Positions 6,045-28,525 of a DNA stretch of 32,000 nucleotides are shown here, in pieces (the stretch's first letter is position 1; every line of letters starts with the position of its first letter). The notes beneath the pieces were generated by a model. It was not told the origin of the DNA, did not search any database, and worked only from the letters and a program-made list of their open reading frames with translations. The stretch is from contig NZ_PQWO01000001.1 of the NCBI RefSeq assembly GCF_003231495.1, positions 510,001 to 542,000 on the forward strand, read 5' to 3'. Source of the DNA: Acaryochloris thomasi RCC1774. GTDB taxonomy: Bacteria > Cyanobacteriota > Cyanobacteriia > Thermosynechococcales > Thermosynechococcaceae. Position numbers and translations under genes: made by a program.

Positions 6045-7475
6045 CTAGCCCCTGGGCGCTTCAGTAATGGTGGTCCATTCTGTGTGGAAGCTACCGTCTT
6101 TATCGACGCGCTCGTAGGTGTGGGCACCAAAGAAGTCGCGCTGAGCCTGCGTCAGGTTCTGAGGCAAATGCTCACGCCGATAGGAATCAAAGTAATCAAG
6201 GGAGGCGCTAAAGGCAGGCACCGGCACCCCGATCTTGGCAGCGGTTGCCATCACTTCTCGCCACGCTTCTTGGCGATCTAAAATCGTCTGCTTAAACTCA
6301 GGTGCAAGCAGCAGATTGGAGAGGTTCGGATCATCAGAGAACGCTTTCTTGATCTTGTCTAGAAAGCCCGCTCGAATAATGCAGCCGCCTTTCCAAATGC
6401 GGGAAATCTCGCCCAGATCGAGATTAAAGCCAAACTCCTTAGAAGCCGCGCCCATCAGCGCCATGCCCTGAGCGTAGGAGCAAATCTTAGAGCAGTACAG
6501 CGCATCCCGAACCTGATTGACAAAGGTCTGCTGATCGCCGTCATATTTCGCTGTGGGGCCTGACAGAATCTTCGAGGCTGCAATGCGCTCATCTTTGTAA
6601 GACGAAGCAATGCGCGCATTCACCGCTGCCGTAATGGTGGGAATGGGCACGCCCAGCTCTAGGGCGCTCATCACGGTCCAGCGGCCTGTGCCCTTTTGAC
6701 CGGCTTTATCCATAATCACGTCCACCAATGGCTTTTTGGTGTCAGGATCAATGTAGGTGAAGATCTCGGTTGTGATTTCAATCAAGAATGAATTTAGCTC
6801 ATCCGTCTTGTTCCAGTCGGCAAAGACATCGTGCAGCTGAGCCGCCGTCAGCCCCACAGATCGGAGTAAATCGTAGGCTTCAGCAATGAGCTGCATGTCG
6901 CCATATTCAATGCCGTTGTGAACCATCTTGACGTAGTGACCTGCGCCCCCTGGACCGATATAGGTCACACAGGGACCGTCATCAACTTGAGCAGCAATCT
7001 TGGTCAGAATCGGCTCAAGATCGGTATAGGCTTCTTGAGTACCACCCGGCATTAGACTGGGGCCATTAAGTGCTCCTTCTTCGCCACCGCTGACGCCCAT
7101 GCCAATAAACCGTAGGCCGTCTGCCTCTAACTCTTTGGTGCGACGAACCGTATCTTCGTAGAGAGAGTTACCGCCGTCAATGAGGGCATCGCCAGGCGAA
7201 AGCAGGGGCTTGAGCTGTTGAATAACGGCATCAACCGGGCCACCGGCTTTGACCATGATTACAATTCGGCGAGGCTGCGCGAGGGATTCCACCAATTCTT
7301 CTGGGGAATAGGTGGGCTTGATATTTCGACCCGCAGCGCGCTCTTTCATAAACTCGTCGGTCCGAGAGGCGGTGCGGTTGTACACGGCGACGGGGAAGCC
7401 ATTGCGTTCCACGTTGAGAGCGAGATTTTCACCCATCACGGCAAGGCCGATCAGACCAAATTGTTGCTGAGACAT
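6045..7475 (-). CDS. gnd: 6-phosphogluconate dehydrogenase, decarboxylating
   Basis: 476-aa ORF with GLIGLAVMGENLALN at the N-terminus, the signature IDGGNS, and full-length resemblance to Gnd (HNGIEYGDMQLIAEAY, GTGRWT). Confidence 0.95.
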   Translation of the reverse strand: MSQQQFGLIGLAVMGENLALNVERNGFPVAVYNRTASRTDEFMKERAAGRNIKPTYSPEELVESLAQPRRIVIMVKAGGPVDAVIQQLKPLLSPGDALIDGGNSLYEDTVRRTKELEADGLRFIGMGVSGGEEGALNGPSLMPGGTQEAYTDLEPILTKIAAQVDDGPCVTYIGPGGAGHYVKMVHNGIEYGDMQLIAEAYDLLRSVGLTAAQLHDVFADWNKTDELNSFLIEITTEIFTYIDPDTKKPLVDVIMDKAGQKGTGRWTVMSALELGVPIPTITAAVNARIASSYKDERIAASKILSGPTAKYDGDQQTFVNQVRDALYCSKICSYAQGMALMGAASKEFGFNLDLGEISRIWKGGCIIRAGFLDKIKKAFSDDPNLSNLLLAPEFKQTILDRQEAWREVMATAAKIGVPVPAFSASLDYFDSYRREHLPQNLTQAQRDFFGAHTYERVDKDGSFHTEWTTITEAPRG

Positions 7476-7581
7476 CGGTGGACTTCCTTCGGAACACGTT
7501 CGCCTTCAGCCTAGCTTGATCCCCTTGGTGGCTGATGGGTGTGAGATTAAAACACTCTTGAGATTTCCTGAAATATTGCGG

Positions 7582-8275
7582 CTAAGGCTCTTTAAGTGCC
7601 TGCTTAAGCTGCGGTAGAGTTCTGTCGTATTTTTGTAATCTTGCTCGATCCTGAACCGTGGGTGCTGCAATGCGGCTGAGATCCATGTTGTCTGTCATAT
7701 CGACAATTTTGACGCGTAGCGCCATCTGATTGGCAATCACGCGCTGTAAGTAGTCGTCCCTGAAAAACCTCATTAGCCCATATATCACCAGCCTTTCAGG
7801 CACTAAAATGTGGATCTAAATTGCAAGTAAATTCGCTGCCCCTTGCAAAAACTGGTGAAATGGCGCTTTTCTTAATTGCTTGAAGCCCCCAATCCATGTG
7901 TTTGCACAAATCTATGTGCTCCAAATCGGGTCTCCAGAAGCTCTGATATACAGGGGCCGCAGCAAAATACCTTCAAAATGCAAGGGGTTTTTCAGGGACG
8001 ACTAAGTAGGTTTCGTAGGCTTCAGCTTCTCGTTTCGTGATCGCATCAATGGCCGCAACGATGCGATCAGGGAAGCCGGCCCGTCGTAGCTCAGTCAACG
8101 TTAATTCAGAGTCTTCTACAGCATCGTGGAGAACGCCCACAATTTTGTCAGGGGTTGTGGACAATTGCTGCATGACTCTTAAGGGATGGCTGATATAAGG
8201 CTGTCCGGCTTTATCAACTTGACCTGCGTGGGCTTGGTGGGCGAGGTTAATAGCCGTCTGCAACAGATCAACCAT
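7582..8275 (-). pseudogene. SpoT/Mesh1-like HD-domain hydrolase gene, split by a MITE insertion
   Basis: The N-terminal fragment (7973-8275) carries AHAGQVDKAGQPYISHPLRV and VLHDAVEDS, the HD-domain ppGpp-hydrolase-type motifs. The C-terminal fragment (7582-7803, a different frame) carries RVKIVDMTDNMDL. Removing 256 bp fuses them in frame as ...EAYETYL|QRVIANQ... Confidence 0.75.
7754..8002. mobile_element. Non-autonomous MITE-like insertion (about 249 bp)
   Basis: Perfect 19-bp terminal inverted repeats: TAGTCGTCCCTGAAAAACC (7751-7769) and GGTTTTTCAGGGACGACTA (7986-8004). A 7-bp direct repeat TAAGTAG lies at 7747-7753 and 8003-8009. There is no internal ORF, and the element interrupts a recognisable gene. 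Confidence 0.7.
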
Positions 8276-9044
8276 GATCGAAGGACTGCATCAGCTCAGG
8301 CGTGAGGTCTTGAACGTTATTGAGAGTTGCGATCGCACCCACTTCCTTCAACTTCTGCGCATACTCTGGCGAATCTTGAGCATGGGGCGGCAGCACACCT
8401 ACACCGATCCAGTTGATGTTGGGATATTGCGATCGCGCATTAATCACCGTTTGAATATCTGCCACCGTGTCGCCCACATAAAAAACAGTCAGTGACAGAT
8501 TAGAATCCTGCCCCTCTCGCAGAGTCTCGACAGTCGCCATCAGCCCTGTAGGATCGGGTTTGCCGGGAGCATCCTCCATTGCCACCAGTACCGGAGACTC
8601 TAGCTCTAGCCGATGCTCTAAAACATAGGAAGCAGAACCACGCGTCGCTCCACTAAAAAAACCCCAGGCAATATTCGCTTGCGTGAGCTGTTCTAAATAG
8701 GCACGGGTCATGAGCAGCGGTTCATTTTGGATGTAGCCGGAGAAATCCTGCCCCCGATAGCGGCTTTGAAAAAAATCAACCAGGGCAGAGTAGTCAATCG
8801 TGGGTCGCTCTAAATTTTGGGCTTTGCAAAAACGATAAACTAGCTCTTCAGAAGCCTTCCAGTCATTGTTCCAGCAGCCTTCTGCCTTGAGTGCATCAAT
8901 CTCTGCCATCGTGGGCCGGTACTGACCTTGGGTAAATTGTTCGACGGTGTCAGCCAATGCTCGCCGATAGGAGCCTGCAACATCGCGCACAACACCATCA
9001 ATATCAAAAACGACCATTAGTGCCCGAGATTGAGAATCCTGCAT
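8268..9044 (-). CDS. HAD-superfamily hydrolase
   Basis: HAD motif I VVFDIDGVVRD and motif IV YVGDTVADI. The stop overlaps the HD-gene start by 8 nt (ATGGTTGA), which suggests an operon. Confidence 0.7.
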   Translation of the reverse strand: MQDSQSRALMVVFDIDGVVRDVAGSYRRALADTVEQFTQGQYRPTMAEIDALKAEGCWNNDWKASEELVYRFCKAQNLERPTIDYSALVDFFQSRYRGQDFSGYIQNEPLLMTRAYLEQLTQANIAWGFFSGATRGSASYVLEHRLELESPVLVAMEDAPGKPDPTGLMATVETLREGQDSNLSLTVFYVGDTVADIQTVINARSQYPNINWIGVGVLPPHAQDSPEYAQKLKEVGAIATLNNVQDLTPELMQSFDHG

Positions 9045-12120: not shown

Positions 12121-12160
12121 CTGCATTGGCCCCCCCGGCCCCCAAATTCTGGGGGGAGAG
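12121..12160 (+). repeat. GC-rich palindromic repeat, copy A
   Basis: CTGCATTGGCCCCCCCGGCCCCCAAATTCTGGGGGGAGAG. It is related to copies at 13321-13358 (same orientation) and 13504-13540 (inverted). Confidence 0.65.
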
Positions 12161-12266: not shown

Positions 12267-13025
12267 ATGAGTCAGAGTGCAAACATCTCGCCTATTCATC
12301 TTTGGTGTTTGCACGGTAATTTACAGCAGCCTAGCGTTTGGGAAACGGCTCTGAGAGATCTTTGGCGAGACCCAGCGATCAGGGTTATTCCGGTGGATTT
12401 GTGGTCAACGACGGCTCAGGATTTTTGGGGTTGGGCAGAGCAGTTCTGTGAACGGGTGGTGGCTGAGGGAGCCAGTCGCAATGTAGTGTTGGGCTACTCT
12501 TTGGGTGGACGGTTGGCCCTCCATGCAGTGCTGCAAAATCCGGGGTTGTGGAAGGGTGCGATCGCAACCAGCACATCCCCTGGTCTCTCTAGTTTTAAGG
12601 ACCGTCAGGCCTGTCTTCAGCGCGATCGAATCTGGGGCCAACGCTTTAGAACAGAACCGTGGCAAGCGCTCCTAAATGAGTGGGATAACCTACCCGTTTT
12701 TAATGGCATTCCCTGCAACATTGAGCGAAAGGAAAGTCAGTTTTCTCGACAGCGGATTGCGCGACTGTTCGATATTTTTTCCCAGGGCCGTCAAGAGGAT
12801 TTGCTACTTCGATTAAAAGCGCTGGAGAACCCGCCAATCTTGTATATTTCTGGGGAGCTTGATCGAAAATACTGCGCGATGGGTCGTCGTTTGGCTGAGG
12901 CGTGTCGTGGGGTGGAGTGGGTTGCGATCGCAAATGCAGGCCATCGAGTCCCGTGGGAGAACACGCCTGTATTTACGCAGGTGGTTGAACAGTGGTTGCG
13001 TCAGCTCCCAGATCAAACAAATTGA
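12267..13025 (+). CDS. Alpha/beta-fold hydrolase (MenH-like)
   Basis: Nucleophile elbow GYSLGG, a C-terminal catalytic His context NAGHRVPWENTPVF, and a length of 252 aa. The MenH assignment is tentative. Confidence 0.55.
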   Translation: MSQSANISPIHLWCLHGNLQQPSVWETALRDLWRDPAIRVIPVDLWSTTAQDFWGWAEQFCERVVAEGASRNVVLGYSLGGRLALHAVLQNPGLWKGAIATSTSPGLSSFKDRQACLQRDRIWGQRFRTEPWQALLNEWDNLPVFNGIPCNIERKESQFSRQRIARLFDIFSQGRQEDLLLRLKALENPPILYISGELDRKYCAMGRRLAEACRGVEWVAIANAGHRVPWENTPVFTQVVEQWLRQLPDQTN

Positions 13026-13320: not shown

Positions 13321-13358
13321 CTGCATTCGCCCCCCGGCCCCCCAATTCTGGGGGGAGA
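13321..13358 (+). repeat. GC-rich palindromic repeat, copy B
   Basis: CTGCATTCGCCCCCCGGCCCCCCAATTCTGGGGGGAGA. It forms an inverted pair with copy C, 145 bp away. Confidence 0.65.
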
Positions 13359-13503: not shown

Positions 13504-13540
13504 TCTCCCCCCAGAATTGGGGGACTGGGGGGCAGTGCAA
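13504..13540 (-). repeat. GC-rich palindromic repeat, copy C (inverted)
   Basis: TCTCCCCCCAGAATTGGGGGACTGGGGGGCAGTGCAA, about 80 percent identical to the reverse complement of copy B by eye. Confidence 0.6.
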
Positions 13541-16845: not shown

Positions 16846-19800
16846 ATGACCGCTTCTTTGAATGAGCCACGTTTATCGAGTACTCCTGGCGGTGACGCAG
16901 GTGTCGCCGCGCCAACGTTAGAGGCTACCCATTCTGAAGGGTTCGGCCATTGGCTGCAGCAACAGCAGCTCAGTCTAGCCTTTACGACCTACCAAACGAA
17001 TCGCTTATTTTGTCTGGGCACGACACAGGCAGGGAAAATGGCGCTACATGAACGCTTGTTTGATAAGCCAATGGGCCTGTTCGCCCAGGACAATCGCCTC
17101 TACATGAGTACCCGCTATCAAATATGGCAGCTCGATAATCTGCTAAGACCCGGAGAACTGCGTCAGGGTTGCGATCTCATCTACACCCCAAAACTAGCGC
17201 ACACAACCGGCGACCTCAACGTTCACGACGTGGTTATCGACGCATCCGGCGAACTTCTGTTTGTGAATACCGACTTCAACTGTTTAGCCCGTCTCAGCCC
17301 TGACTATAGCTTTGTACCGCAATGGCGACCGCCCTTTATCTCGAAATGGGTCGCCGAAGATCGCTGTCACCTCAACGGCCTCGCCCTGCGAGAGGGCAAA
17401 CCGGCCTACATGACCGCCTGTAGCAGCACCAATACAGCCGCCAGTTGGCGTCACCACCGGGTTGACGGCGGCGTCGTGATGGATATCCAAGCCAACGAAG
17501 TGATCGCCACGGGCCTCTCAATGCCCCACTCGCCACGCTGGTATCGCGGCAAGCTCTGGTTGCTCAATTCAGGGACCGGTGAACTCGGTCACATCGACTT
17601 CGACAGCGGTGCCTTTGTCCCGCTCACCTTCTGCCCCGGCTTCGTGCGGGGAATGACCTTTTGCGGCAACGTCGCCGTGATCGGTCTATCAAAATTGAGG
17701 TCAAAATCTTTCACCGGTCTAGCGCTGGAAAAACGACTAACGGCAGCGGGAGATCGCCCCCACTGTGGCTTGATGGTTGTTGACCTAGAGACCGGCAACG
17801 TTTTGCATTGGCTGCGTTTAGAGGGAGTCGTTGAAGAGCTTTTTGATGTGGTGGTGCTACCCAACGTCCGCCAGCCGCAATCTCTAGGGTTCCAGTCTGA
17901 TGAAATTGAGCGGCTAGTCACCTTCCCAGAGGCTGAAGGGATTGTGGTCACAAAACCCACGGTCAAGCGCCCGAGTTTGGCAGGCAAAGCCCCCGTTGCT
18001 GGCGTACCCCGCACCGTCTGGGATGGGCAGTCAAGCTCCTCAACGGCTTCAGTCCCGTCGATCGCTGCCGCTTTAGACTCCCTTAAGTTTCAGCACGTTT
18101 ACCATCTGACACCAGAAAATCTGGCAGACTACGACGATTTCACGTTTCCGCGTCTACGGCAGCGCTGGTCACAGCAGCCTCAGCGCGGCGAGATGCTCGG
18201 CGTATCAGCGTCGGTAGAGGGCGACATGGTGGCCTTCGGTGTGGCTGAGCTGCTGCCCGATCAGTCGGCTGAGGTGATCTCGCTTTGGGTGACCCCAGAG
18301 TACCGGCAACAAAGGATCGGACAGCGGTTGATGGCAATTCTGGAGCAGAAAGTCTGCCAAGAGGGCTGCACTAAACTGTTAATCGCCTACGAGGCCACTG
18401 CCCTTACCCAGATAGAGCCTTTATTGAAAAACTTGGGCTGGCAAGCCCTCTCTCAGAACCACACCCAGCATAGATGGCACAAAAATTTCGCACCGCAGCT
18501 TGAGAAAGAGGCACCACACCCCTTTGAGCAGGGCAAAGCCTTTGCTAAGCAAGGAGATCTAGACGCAGCCATCGCTTGCTTTACTGAGGCCCTTCGCCAA
18601 CGCCCCGACCACCTCGCCGCCTATAACCAACTGGGCAATGCCTATCAGCAGTTGGGGCAAACAGAAGATGCGATCGCAACCTATCAAGCCCTCTTAGAAC
18701 GCAATCCCAACGTCGCGCAGGCCCACGCCAACCTAGGGGCGATCTGGCAGATTCAGGGGAAAACGGGAGATGCGATCGCATCCTATCAAACCGCCATTGC
18801 CCTCAAGCCCGACTTAACCGTAGCCCATCTCAATCTAGCCAAGCTGCACGCAACAGCAGGCCAGCAAAAAAACGCTGCAGTGCATTATCAAGCGGCCCTT
18901 GCAGCCGATCCCCAACAAGTAGAAGCCCACTACGGCCTTGCCAAGGTATCGCTGACTCAGGACCATTTAGAGCAGGCAAACGCCTGTTTTCGGCAGGTTT
19001 TAAAGCTCCAGCCGGAACACTCAGCCGCTCTATTAGAGCTAGGCTTTTTGTCTGAGGCCCAAGGGCAACTAGCGGTTGCTCGTGCCTGCTACCAGAAGCT
19101 ATTTAATACCTGCCTAGAGTGGCAGCATTTAGCCGCTTACCAGCTTAGCTATGTGCGGCGGCAGCTTTGCAACTGGCAGCACGACGATGCGCGTATGACA
19201 GAGCTACTGCAGCGCCTTGAGACGCACATTGCTCAGACCGACAGTCCTGCCCTCGCCCCCTTGAGCCTGAGCGTTTTCCCCGCATCGCCAGCATTGCATC
19301 GGGCCGTGAACGAACACCACGCAGCGCAGATTCAGCGACGCATGGCCGAGACTAAAGAACGATGTCATTTCCAGCATCCTCAGGGGCCTGTCGATAAACT
19401 GCGGATTGGCTACGTCTCGCCTGATTTCCGCAATCATCCGGTGGGCTGGCTGATGCAAGATTTGTTTCAGTACCACGACCGCGATCGCTTTGAAATCTTT
19501 GCCTATAGCCTCCGCCATGCCGAAGATTCAGTGCAGGCCAACATTGAGGCCGGGTGCGATCATTTTATCGACTGCTCCCAGCTATTGCCGGAAGAGAGTG
19601 CTCACCGCATTCATGCTGATGGCATTCATATTTTGATTGATCTAGCGGGTTACACCACCTATTCTCGACCTGAGATTTTTGCGCTGCGTCCCGCACCAAT
19701 TCAGTGCAGCTATTTAGGCTATCCCGATACCACCGGTTCAGAGAGTATCGATTATCTGATCACCGATGAGTGGGTCGTGCCGCCTGCATTGGCAGCTCAC

Positions 19801-20505: not shown

Positions 20506-21365
20506 GATCTGTTCTAAGACAGGAAAGTCCCCATCGTGCTGCCTTCATCTTTTTGGGCCGCTTCACGGAGAATGCGGCCCATCTTAATTGAGGGGAATTG
20601 AAGAATGGAGACGGTTGCGATCGCATCGATCAACCGCTGTCTCTCTCATCAAGAACAGGCCTACTCTCACATAGATTATCCCGCAATGTCTTCATTTGCT
20701 TAGACCGCACAGCTCCAGATCAGTAAGCTATCAAGCCTGCGATATGACATCAAAAGAAATCAGCCGTCCGTCAGACACGATCAGGCGACAAGAAACTTAA
20801 AACGATAGCCATTGCGTTTTTGAAGATTGCACCACGAGGCTGAAACGCTTACCCCAAGCCACAAAAAGCAAAACAGAAGCTGTACCAGCAGAAAACAGCT
20901 TGGAGAAATCCTGTATGTTTTTAAGTCTTATTTTATTGAGCTATAAACACTCAGTTATTATCATCCTAAATACTAGGTATAACGCTGTAACCCTTGCTCT
21001 ACAAAAGTGATAGTTAACGCTCGAATATTTCTGCTCCAGAAATTCAGGTTTTTTTGTATGCTTTGATGTTCTACTTTGTTGGTTTCAAAAACAACTTTCG
21101 CATGATGTTGGCATACCTCAGAATCACATCTAGGCAATAAAAACGTGTCTAAAAACAATAGAAGCATGATGAGATGGAGTTCTACAAAAAATATTTCCAG
21201 AGAAATTTTGTATATTTTCGCGTTTGTTTTTGCTTACCGCTACGTGTTGAATTCCATTGTTATACAAAGTTTTTAGCTGGGTACACTCAATTTCAGACAG
21301 CTTAATAATTTAAATTTCAAAATTCTATATAGACTTCTTCTTCTGCCAGTTGCTCGGATTTATTT

Positions 21366-27724: not shown

Positions 27725-28525
27725 TTAGGATGCAGTGGGCACAACCGTTTCAGACTGAGACTCCATAGATAAGAACTCTAGTGGACGGCTCATGTTGGCA
27801 GCGAAGCCGAGAATGTTGCGATCGCAAAACTCATACACCAGCTCTCCATTCTCAAACAAAAACGTCCCGCCTCGCTGCGTAATGTGAGCTGCATCAGGAA
27901 CGTAGGTGCCCCAGTTGCCCAACACCTCCGCCATATTCCGCAGCCTCAGCGTCGCTAGCTCAAAGGGCCGCTGAAAACCTTTGCCCCCTACATTCTTGAA
28001 CAGTTCACCTTTTACGGGTGGCAGTGGTGTCGCCTTGACCACTTCATCATCAGCAATCAACTGAGGCGCGTTGCGATCGCCCTTGTATCCGCGAAAAACC
28101 TCCGTTAACGTTCCCGGACTGCCAATCCCTGCACACATGAGCAGCAAACTGAAATAGGCATTTTGAGCGACTGAGCAGCCCGGAACCTTAAGCCTTAGGC
28201 CAGGGTAGAGATCGAGCTGTTGATGGAGTTCTGCTTTGGGATCGACGTATAAACAGTCTGCGGGGAACCCTGTATATTCGCAAAACTTTTTGCCGGAGTT
28301 GCGATCGCCAATCCCCACCGCCCGGAAGACAATACCTTGCTCTTGAAGTAACTCAGCCTCTCGCCGCAGCCACCAGGCATATTCAAGACTATCAAAGTCA
28401 CCTAACTGGGGCCACACCATCACTAGCAAGCGACGAGCTGACTCGCAGCCGCTGAGGATTGGCGCTATTTCACCATCATTCACGCGCTGAAATTGAGATT
28501 GCTTAAAAGTATTGAAGGTATTCAT
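27725..28525 (-). CDS. Thioredoxin-fold protein, AhpC/TSA-2 (PRXL2/AAED1)-like
   Basis: 266-aa ORF. LLVMVWPQLGDFDSLEYAWWL...GIVFRAVGIGD resembles the peroxiredoxin-like-2 family. No CxxC motif was seen. Confidence 0.4.
   Translation of the reverse strand: MNTFNTFKQSQFQRVNDGEIAPILSGCESARRLLVMVWPQLGDFDSLEYAWWLRREAELLQEQGIVFRAVGIGDRNSGKKFCEYTGFPADCLYVDPKAELHQQLDLYPGLRLKVPGCSVAQNAYFSLLLMCAGIGSPGTLTEVFRGYKGDRNAPQLIADDEVVKATPLPPVKGELFKNVGGKGFQRPFELATLRLRNMAEVLGNWGTYVPDAAHITQRGGTFLFENGELVYEFCDRNILGFAANMSRPLEFLSMESQSETVVPTAS

Follow-up and report, generated by a model that had tools for sequence, protein, structure and literature searches.

A probable IS5-type MITE within a putative Aph-family (p)ppApp hydrolase gene of Acaryochloris thomasi RCC1774

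In the cyanobacterium Acaryochloris thomasi RCC1774, a gene for an HD-domain hydrolase of the alarmone type lies in two pieces, raising the questions of what parted them and what the enzyme was. We examined positions 510,001 to 542,000 of contig NZ_PQWO01000001.1 (assembly GCF_003231495.1), a stretch of 32,000 nucleotides that we call the window and number from its own first letter; the two gene pieces lie within 7582–8275. An initial annotation, made from the sequence alone, had read the DNA between them as a MITE (miniature inverted-repeat transposable element) of roughly 249 bp, free of open reading frames (ORFs) and inserted into a SpoT/Mesh1-like hydrolase gene. Our analysis makes it very probable that a 250-bp MITE, belonging to a clade of IS5-family insertion sequences (ISs; model NF033578, ISGlo4-like), inserted into the gene of a 145-aa Aph-family (p)ppApp hydrolase. 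The features on which the argument turns are the following.

7973–8275, minus strand: N-terminal gene fragment, residues 1–91 native (8003–8275), then VVPEKPLAF and a stop; it carries H30, H50-D51, E54-D55 and the Aph signature residue D21
8003–8008, no strand: right target duplication TAAGTA, 6 bp, assigned from the comparison of insertions of the clade and from the empty site in a close relative (contig L127)
7986–8002, plus strand: right terminal inverted repeat, 17 nt, GGTTTTTCAGGGACGAC, the perfect complement of the left repeat
7753–8002, no strand: non-autonomous MITE (probable), 250 bp; 7754–8002 are absent from the roughly 94%-identical L127, and the ends are fixed by 12 other insertions of the same clade
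7753–7769, plus strand: left terminal inverted repeat, 17 nt, GTCGTCCCTGAAAAACC, whose 15–17 nt also end full-length IS5-family copies
7747–7752, no strand: left target duplication TAAGTA, 6 bp, read on the coding strand as TAC TTA (Tyr90-Leu91) and present as a single copy in the L127 empty site
7582–7746, minus strand: C-terminal gene fragment, residues 92–145 and the stop; it retains D107 (a metal ligand), N111 and, of the Aph signature, R93, D113, R116, K130 and Y131

Insertion site and its empty counterpart

As the initial annotation had predicted, removing 256 bp restored a 145-aa frame on the minus strand, reading through the junction as ...AYETYL/QRVIANQ..., and the restored protein scored above the Pfam HD_4 threshold. 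Twelve orthologues of 143–167 aa aligned without gaps across this junction, with Y90 and R93 invariant among them. The interruption falls after L91, between Tyr90-Leu91 and Gln92. The N-terminal ORF (7973–8275, minus strand) consequently encodes 100 aa and terminates in ...ETYLVVPEKPLAF and a stop, its last nine residues being supplied by the element, which is the VVPEKPLAF tail noted at the outset.

The comparison with an uninterrupted orthologue, which had been proposed as a check, gave an exact answer. The 90% cluster of the truncated product supplied a close relative, the intact 145-aa protein P0124 of 'Cyanobacteria bacterium P01_A01_bin.17' (GCA_039814705.1), which is 91% identical to the restored protein. 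Its contig, L127, is about 94% identical to the window in DNA on both flanks of the element and aligned in two blocks, window 9484–8003 with L127 3199–4680 and window 7753–7001 with L127 4674–5426. The two blocks meet and overlap on a single CTACTTA, and window positions 7754–8002 are missing there, so that L127 presents an exact empty site. The hydrolase gene is also intact, and stands in the same context, in L121, which is less closely related (77% identity at the protein level), and the gene order PSRP-3, HAD-family hydrolase, alarmone-type hydrolase and 6-phosphogluconate dehydrogenase (6PGD) is common to the window, L127 and L121. By sequence comparison, the insertion of a MITE into the HD-domain alarmone-hydrolase gene is supported by this exact empty site in a close relative, together with the genuine IS5-clade termini and duplication rule and the colinear sister elements described below.

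Because repeats commonly cause misassembly, and because many copies of the parent IS lie at contig ends, we considered whether the interruption could be an assembly or chimera artefact. A misjoin would not, however, yield perfect termini, a perfect 6-bp duplication of a consensus target and exact in-frame restoration of a gene, and we regard an artefact as having almost no chance of being the explanation.

With regard to age, both termini and both copies of the duplication are perfect, and neither fragment contains a stop or a frameshift, in agreement with the initial reading that the fragments bear no other lesion; signs of pseudogene decay were looked for in both fragments and none was seen. 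The restored protein and its intact relative differ at 14 amino acids, which polarisation with eight outgroups divided into eight on the window lineage and six on that of the relative. At the level of sequence, the insertion is consistent with being evolutionarily recent, and the initial suggestion that the family may be active likewise accords with the perfect repeats and the undecayed fragments.

The substitutions can also be viewed gene by gene. Between the window and L127, the proportion of codon differences that change the amino acid was far larger in the hydrolase (14 of 31; window 7582–8275, L127:4408–4845) than in the HAD gene (12 of 47) or 6PGD (5 of 47). Among the changes in the hydrolase, which were spread over both lineages, A106V on the window side and G24E on that of the intact relative alter positions that are otherwise invariant.

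Element ends and source clade

The perfect 19-nt inverted repeat (7751–7769 and 7986–8004) and the 7-nt direct repeat TAAGTAG (7747–7753 and 8003–8009, spacing 256) reported by the initial annotation are both present. Within the window, the 19-mer occurred at these two sites only, even with up to three mismatches allowed (0.01 further matches expected), and chance alone would give only about 5e-5 perfect 19-nt inverted repeats within 400 nt per 32 kb. The two kinds of repeat do overlap, as had been observed, but the boundary between element and duplication, which had been called ambiguous, could be settled from other insertions with the same termini. The nucleotides that follow ...GACGAC, tallied over 123 ends, are T, A, N, N, T (84%), A (82%), of which the first T and A are set by the search pattern itself. 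With the element taken as GTCGTC...GACGAC, duplications of 6 bp without mismatch enclose that of the window and 12 other insertions: TATTTA (L050, L086 and L126), TAAAAA (L004), TAAGTA (L052), TAAATA (L100), TACCTA (L101), TAATTA (L124), TATCTA (L132), TAACTA (L010), and the off-consensus TCCTTA (L102) and TATTGA (L112). The last two are decisive, since in targets that depart from the consensus the TA beside each terminus proves to belong to the duplication and not to the element. A 2-bp duplication AG with 19-nt repeats was therefore rejected, L102 and L112 fitting the 6-bp model only, and a 4-bp duplication AAGT with 18-nt repeats was ruled out by the same two insertions. Judged from these sequence comparisons, the true element is 7753–8002, with 17-nt repeats and a 6-bp TAAGTA duplication, and comparison with other copies thus refines the length of the ORF-less element from about 249 to 250 bp. 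The longer repeats seen initially arise from the palindromic TA ends of the target (TA-NN-TA), with one chance G in addition.

The restored gene contains exactly one TANNTA site, which is the one occupied by the element, among 62 in the window. Thirteen insertions showed a duplication of 6 bp and a single one 7 bp; the latter is a full-length copy in a metagenome-assembled genome (MAG) of Planctomycetota (L072:755–2290), with TACTATA in place of a 6-bp target. Named subgroups of the IS5 family duplicate 4 bp (IS5), 2–4 bp (IS427), 9 bp (IS903), 3 bp (IS1031), 8 bp (ISH1) and 2–3 bp (ISL2), and the 6-bp duplication of the present clade matches none of these lengths.

The outer 17 nt of the repeat were found at no fewer than 120 loci from many phyla in a genome collection of 596 Gb, in which a random 17-mer is expected about 70 times. 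A transposase gene adjoins the terminus in 44 of the 67 loci whose interior was available, while in a further 53 the interior is cut off by the end of the contig or locus, and matches to the 17-mer often stood one k-mer length from a contig end. Complete copies of the clade measure 1416–1580 bp, and the proteins of 425–474 aa that they encode combine a DUF772 domain with DDE_Tnp_1. Against NF033578, the NCBIfam equivalog model for 'IS5 family transposase' (cut-off 275 bits), the transposases of eight copies drawn from six phyla, among them ISGlo4, scored 488–565 bits. A PGAP-annotated relative with the same termini, on plasmid pGLOV01 of Trichlorobacter lovleyi, is named 'IS5-like element ISGlo4 family transposase', and plasmids of Leptospira interrogans carry IS5-family copies that end in the same termini. 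In cyanobacteria the clade is common (Leptolyngbyaceae, Phormidesmis, Leptothoe, Kovacikia, Nostoc and several marine MAGs), and most of these copies lie on contigs of 1.4–1.7 kb, as expected of collapsed multicopy repeats. The name 'ISGlo4' occurs in no searchable paper, and a literature search with the terminal sequence returned a single, unrelated Vibrio paper and no published description of the terminus.

The terminal 15–17 nt, GTCGTCCCTGAAAAA, are identical across Cyanobacteriota, Planctomycetota, Acidobacteriota, Pseudomonadota, Thermodesulfobacteriota, Spirochaetota, Bacteroidota and others, in which the transposases are merely about 50–55% identical. Conservation of the IS ends in the NF033578-type clade is unusually strong.

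The window element shares with NF033578/ISGlo4-type ISs these identical terminal 15–17 nt and the 6-bp duplication at TA-NN-TA, but it is 250 bp long, not 1.4–1.6 kb, and has no transposase; its interior is unrelated to that of a full-length IS, save that some 110 nt weakly resemble the left non-coding end. The G+C content of the element is 44%, against 51% for the window, and all ORFs lying wholly inside it are of 42 aa or less. A six-frame protein search of the element against 5.8 billion proteins gave no match, an Rfam search of 7400–8400 at E <= 1 gave only a chance snoRNA match outside the element, and a consensus scan of the element found no promoter- or terminator-like site. In the predicted folds, the termini of the element pair with each other and close a highly stable hairpin (z = -4.9 to -5.9).

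Such a fold, together with the undamaged state of both gene fragments, could be taken to mean that the interruption is functional, whether as an element excised by programme, as a switch for phase variation or as something resembling an intron, with the hydrolase still being made. Heterocystous cyanobacteria are known for gene-interrupting elements that are excised during development; these are kilobases long, however, and encode their own recombinase, whereas the present element holds neither a recombinase nor any other ORF. It also shows neither an Rfam family nor intron-like features, its termini and duplication are of the DDE transposon type, the hairpin is simply the pairing of the terminal repeats, and the element is absent from the closest relative. 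A functional interruption is accordingly very unlikely in our judgement.

The MITE was probably mobilised in trans, in that a DDE transposase encoded by some full-length copy, roughly 1.4 kb long, would recognise the termini, cut the target at TANNTA with a 6-bp stagger, and move the element by cutting it out and pasting it in. The observed characters are those of a MITE, namely a length within 50–600 bp without a conserved ORF, terminal repeats that match an IS, and a TANNTA duplication of the parental type. Two sister elements were found. A degenerate end-pattern search gave an intergenic one of 247 bp on a metagenome contig (L124, 5352–5598; duplication TAATTA), and one of 249 bp was recognised among the loci with the 17-nt terminus, in Leptolyngbyaceae UHCC 1019 (L010, 1363–1611; duplication TAACTA), the latter with a decayed right terminus. 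The three elements are colinear over their full length and 57–62% identical. No sister copies were found in PLSDB plasmids or in three scans of viral contigs, and metagenomes yielded no exact two-arm match to the element.

An alternative origin is insertion of the complete IS, about 1.4 kb long, with loss of its interior at a later time, in which case the 250 bp would not have been mobile in their short form. The left 110 nt or so of the element do share 63–70% identity with the non-coding left end of complete copies from cyanobacteria, a resemblance that a deletion derivative would show, and short derivatives of the clade with unrelated interiors exist in several genomes. Independent deletions would not, however, give colinear 247- and 249-bp elements at unrelated sites in other genomes, each with a 6-bp duplication of its own, and because the three elements are colinear we favour transposition of an already short element over local deletion, which we consider very improbable.

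The short derivatives just mentioned have the same termini and measure 271 bp (L012:1526–1796), 289 bp (L047:2148–2436), 323 bp (L059:774–1096) and 476 bp (L086:6344–6819). Their hosts are MAGs of Chlamydiota, Planctomycetota, Pseudomonadota and Bacteroidota, and the IS clade has therefore given rise to MITEs repeatedly. A specific parent for the window element was also sought. The cyanobacterial copies that we fetched were at most about 63–70% identical over the first 110 nt or so, and none can be named as the parent.

Some of the evidence weighs against a mobilised MITE with a fixed duplication rule. In about half of the full-length copies elsewhere, each flank is a TANNTA but the two disagree in their central bases, and hence there is no matching duplication; since so many copies behave in this way, the duplication rule does not show at all copies. 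The mismatch could stem from recombination among copies or from misjoining of a multicopy repeat during assembly. The window itself contains neither a transposase nor a further copy of the element. The sister identity of 57–62%, as far as sequence divergence can tell, shows an old family and not current activity.

Flanks with mismatched centres include TATGTA and TAATTA in L088 and TAGTTA and TAGCTA in L130, and the same was seen in L091, L073, L095, L023, L129 and L131; their frequency is striking.

Small size, terminal inverted repeats borrowed from an IS, a target duplication, a non-coding interior and the inactivation of a gene by insertion are characters that the element shares with prokaryotic MITEs in general. 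In cyanobacteria, these include Nezha of Anabaena/Nostoc, the MITEs of Microcystis and those that inactivated mcy genes in Baltic Anabaena, so that gene inactivation by a MITE is already documented in this phylum (PMC10969869).

Taken at its widest, the evidence would describe a still-mobilised and undescribed MITE family of Leptolyngbya-like cyanobacteria, mobilised by a distinct unnamed IS5 subgroup whose ends and 6-bp TA-NN-TA target are nearly unchanged across more than 10 phyla, along with a natural knock-out of a (p)ppApp hydrolase. We offer this combined proposal only tentatively, and rate it as somewhat doubtful. To our knowledge, the termini and parent ISs of the named cyanobacterial MITEs are unlike those of the window element. 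For work on mobile elements, the analysis defines the ends, the TANNTA target and the 6-bp duplication for a very widespread IS5-family clade and for a family of short derivatives; this definition aids the finding of other copies and explains contig breaks in many MAGs. Current understanding is otherwise unchanged by what is a clear but ordinary inactivation of a gene by a mobile element, and the added value is modest, consisting of precise IS ends and target and of the reassignment of the gene to the Aph family.

The interrupted hydrolase gene

The SpoT/Mesh1-like label given initially holds for the superfamily but not for the closest characterised relative. Among solved structures, the restored protein matched best to Aph1, a (p)ppApp hydrolase of Bacteroides caccae (PDB 7SMG), with E = 2e-32 over residues 4–140 and 43% identity, whereas matches to Rel/SpoT hydrolase domains (E = 1e-7 to 1e-11) and to Mesh1 (E = 1e-4 to 1e-3) were weaker by 20 or more orders of magnitude. 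Six residues distinguish Aph proteins from (p)ppGpp hydrolases (D24, R96, D116, R119, K133 and Y134), and the study that established the family recognised its members by the last 53 residues of Aph1 (PMC10083569). All six are present in the restored protein at an offset of 3, as D21, R93, D113, R116, K130 and Y131, and among the 12 cyanobacterial orthologues five of them are invariant and D113 is nearly so. The metal site formed by H30, H50-D51 and D107 corresponds to H33, H53-D54 and D110 of Aph1. The restored protein thus resembles Aph1 in its end-to-end alignment, its HD metal site and its full signature (PMC10083569). With the Mesh1/SpoT (p)ppGpp hydrolases it has in common the HD_4 hydrolase fold and the catalytic residues, but the pair of arginines that stacks on guanine in those enzymes (R43/R44 of TtRel) is replaced by D21-K22, as in Aph1. 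On this sequence evidence, the gene is best described as encoding a putative Aph-family (p)ppApp hydrolase, within the SpoT/Mesh1 superfamily but not Mesh1 or SpoT proper. The genetic setting differs from that of Aph1, which is an immunity-type gene beside a (p)ppApp-synthetase toxin; the window gene is the distal partner of an overlapping pair with a HAD gene, lies beside 6PGD, and is broken.

The insertion leaves the HD motif on one side and, on the other, all but one of the six specificity residues. Because D107, N111 and five signature residues lie beyond it, and because the roles of such residues are established in HD-domain alarmone hydrolases, we infer that the truncated enzyme would be inactive. 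On the tentative, widest reading given above, a (p)ppApp hydrolase in a housekeeping context would moreover be dispensable in a free-living cyanobacterium. The window and its intact relative would also offer a natural pair of mutant and intact strain for an Aph-type hydrolase, in a phylum whose (p)ppApp metabolism is unexplored.

Public records label many orthologues of this gene either 'GTP pyrophosphokinase' or else 'bifunctional (p)ppGpp synthetase/hydrolase'. Such names are wrong, because the protein is a 145-aa hydrolase without a synthetase domain. For annotation, the short ORFs at 7582–8275 would be better recorded as one pseudogene and a MITE, and the intact gene as a putative (p)ppApp hydrolase, not as a "GTP pyrophosphokinase".

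Neighbouring genes and unrelated repeats

The genes on either side of the interrupted one are the following.

8268–9044, minus strand: HAD-family hydrolase, 258 aa, intact, upstream; its stop and the start of the interrupted gene share 8 nt, ATGGTTGA, and both its length and the overlap are kept in relatives
6045–7475, minus strand: 6PGD, 476 aa, intact, downstream, 106 nt past the stop of the interrupted gene and potentially subject to polarity

The 8-nt overlap at 8268–8275 is as initially described. The proposal that an operon function had been knocked out stands for the distal gene of the pair, which is broken, but not for the HAD gene or the downstream 6PGD gene, both of which are intact. 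The pair of HAD and Aph-type genes with its 8-nt overlap of start and stop lies between PSRP-3 and 6PGD in at least three cyanobacterial lineages (window 7582–9044; L121:3196–4438; L127:3639–4845).

Elsewhere in the window, and unrelated to the element, a G/C-rich hairpin repeat of 30 nt, GCCCCCCGGCCCCCCAATTCTGGGGGGAGA, occurs in intergenic DNA at 12131–12160, 13329–13358 and 13504–13533, two of the copies being inverted and 145 nt apart. Three copies were observed where 0.16 are expected, and the repeat may be a repetitive extragenic palindromic (REP)-like element or a second small mobile element. HIP1 palindromes, GCGATCGC, which are typical of cyanobacterial genomes, are frequent in the window, for example at 12557–12580, 18667–18681, 20613–20627 and 27811–27832.

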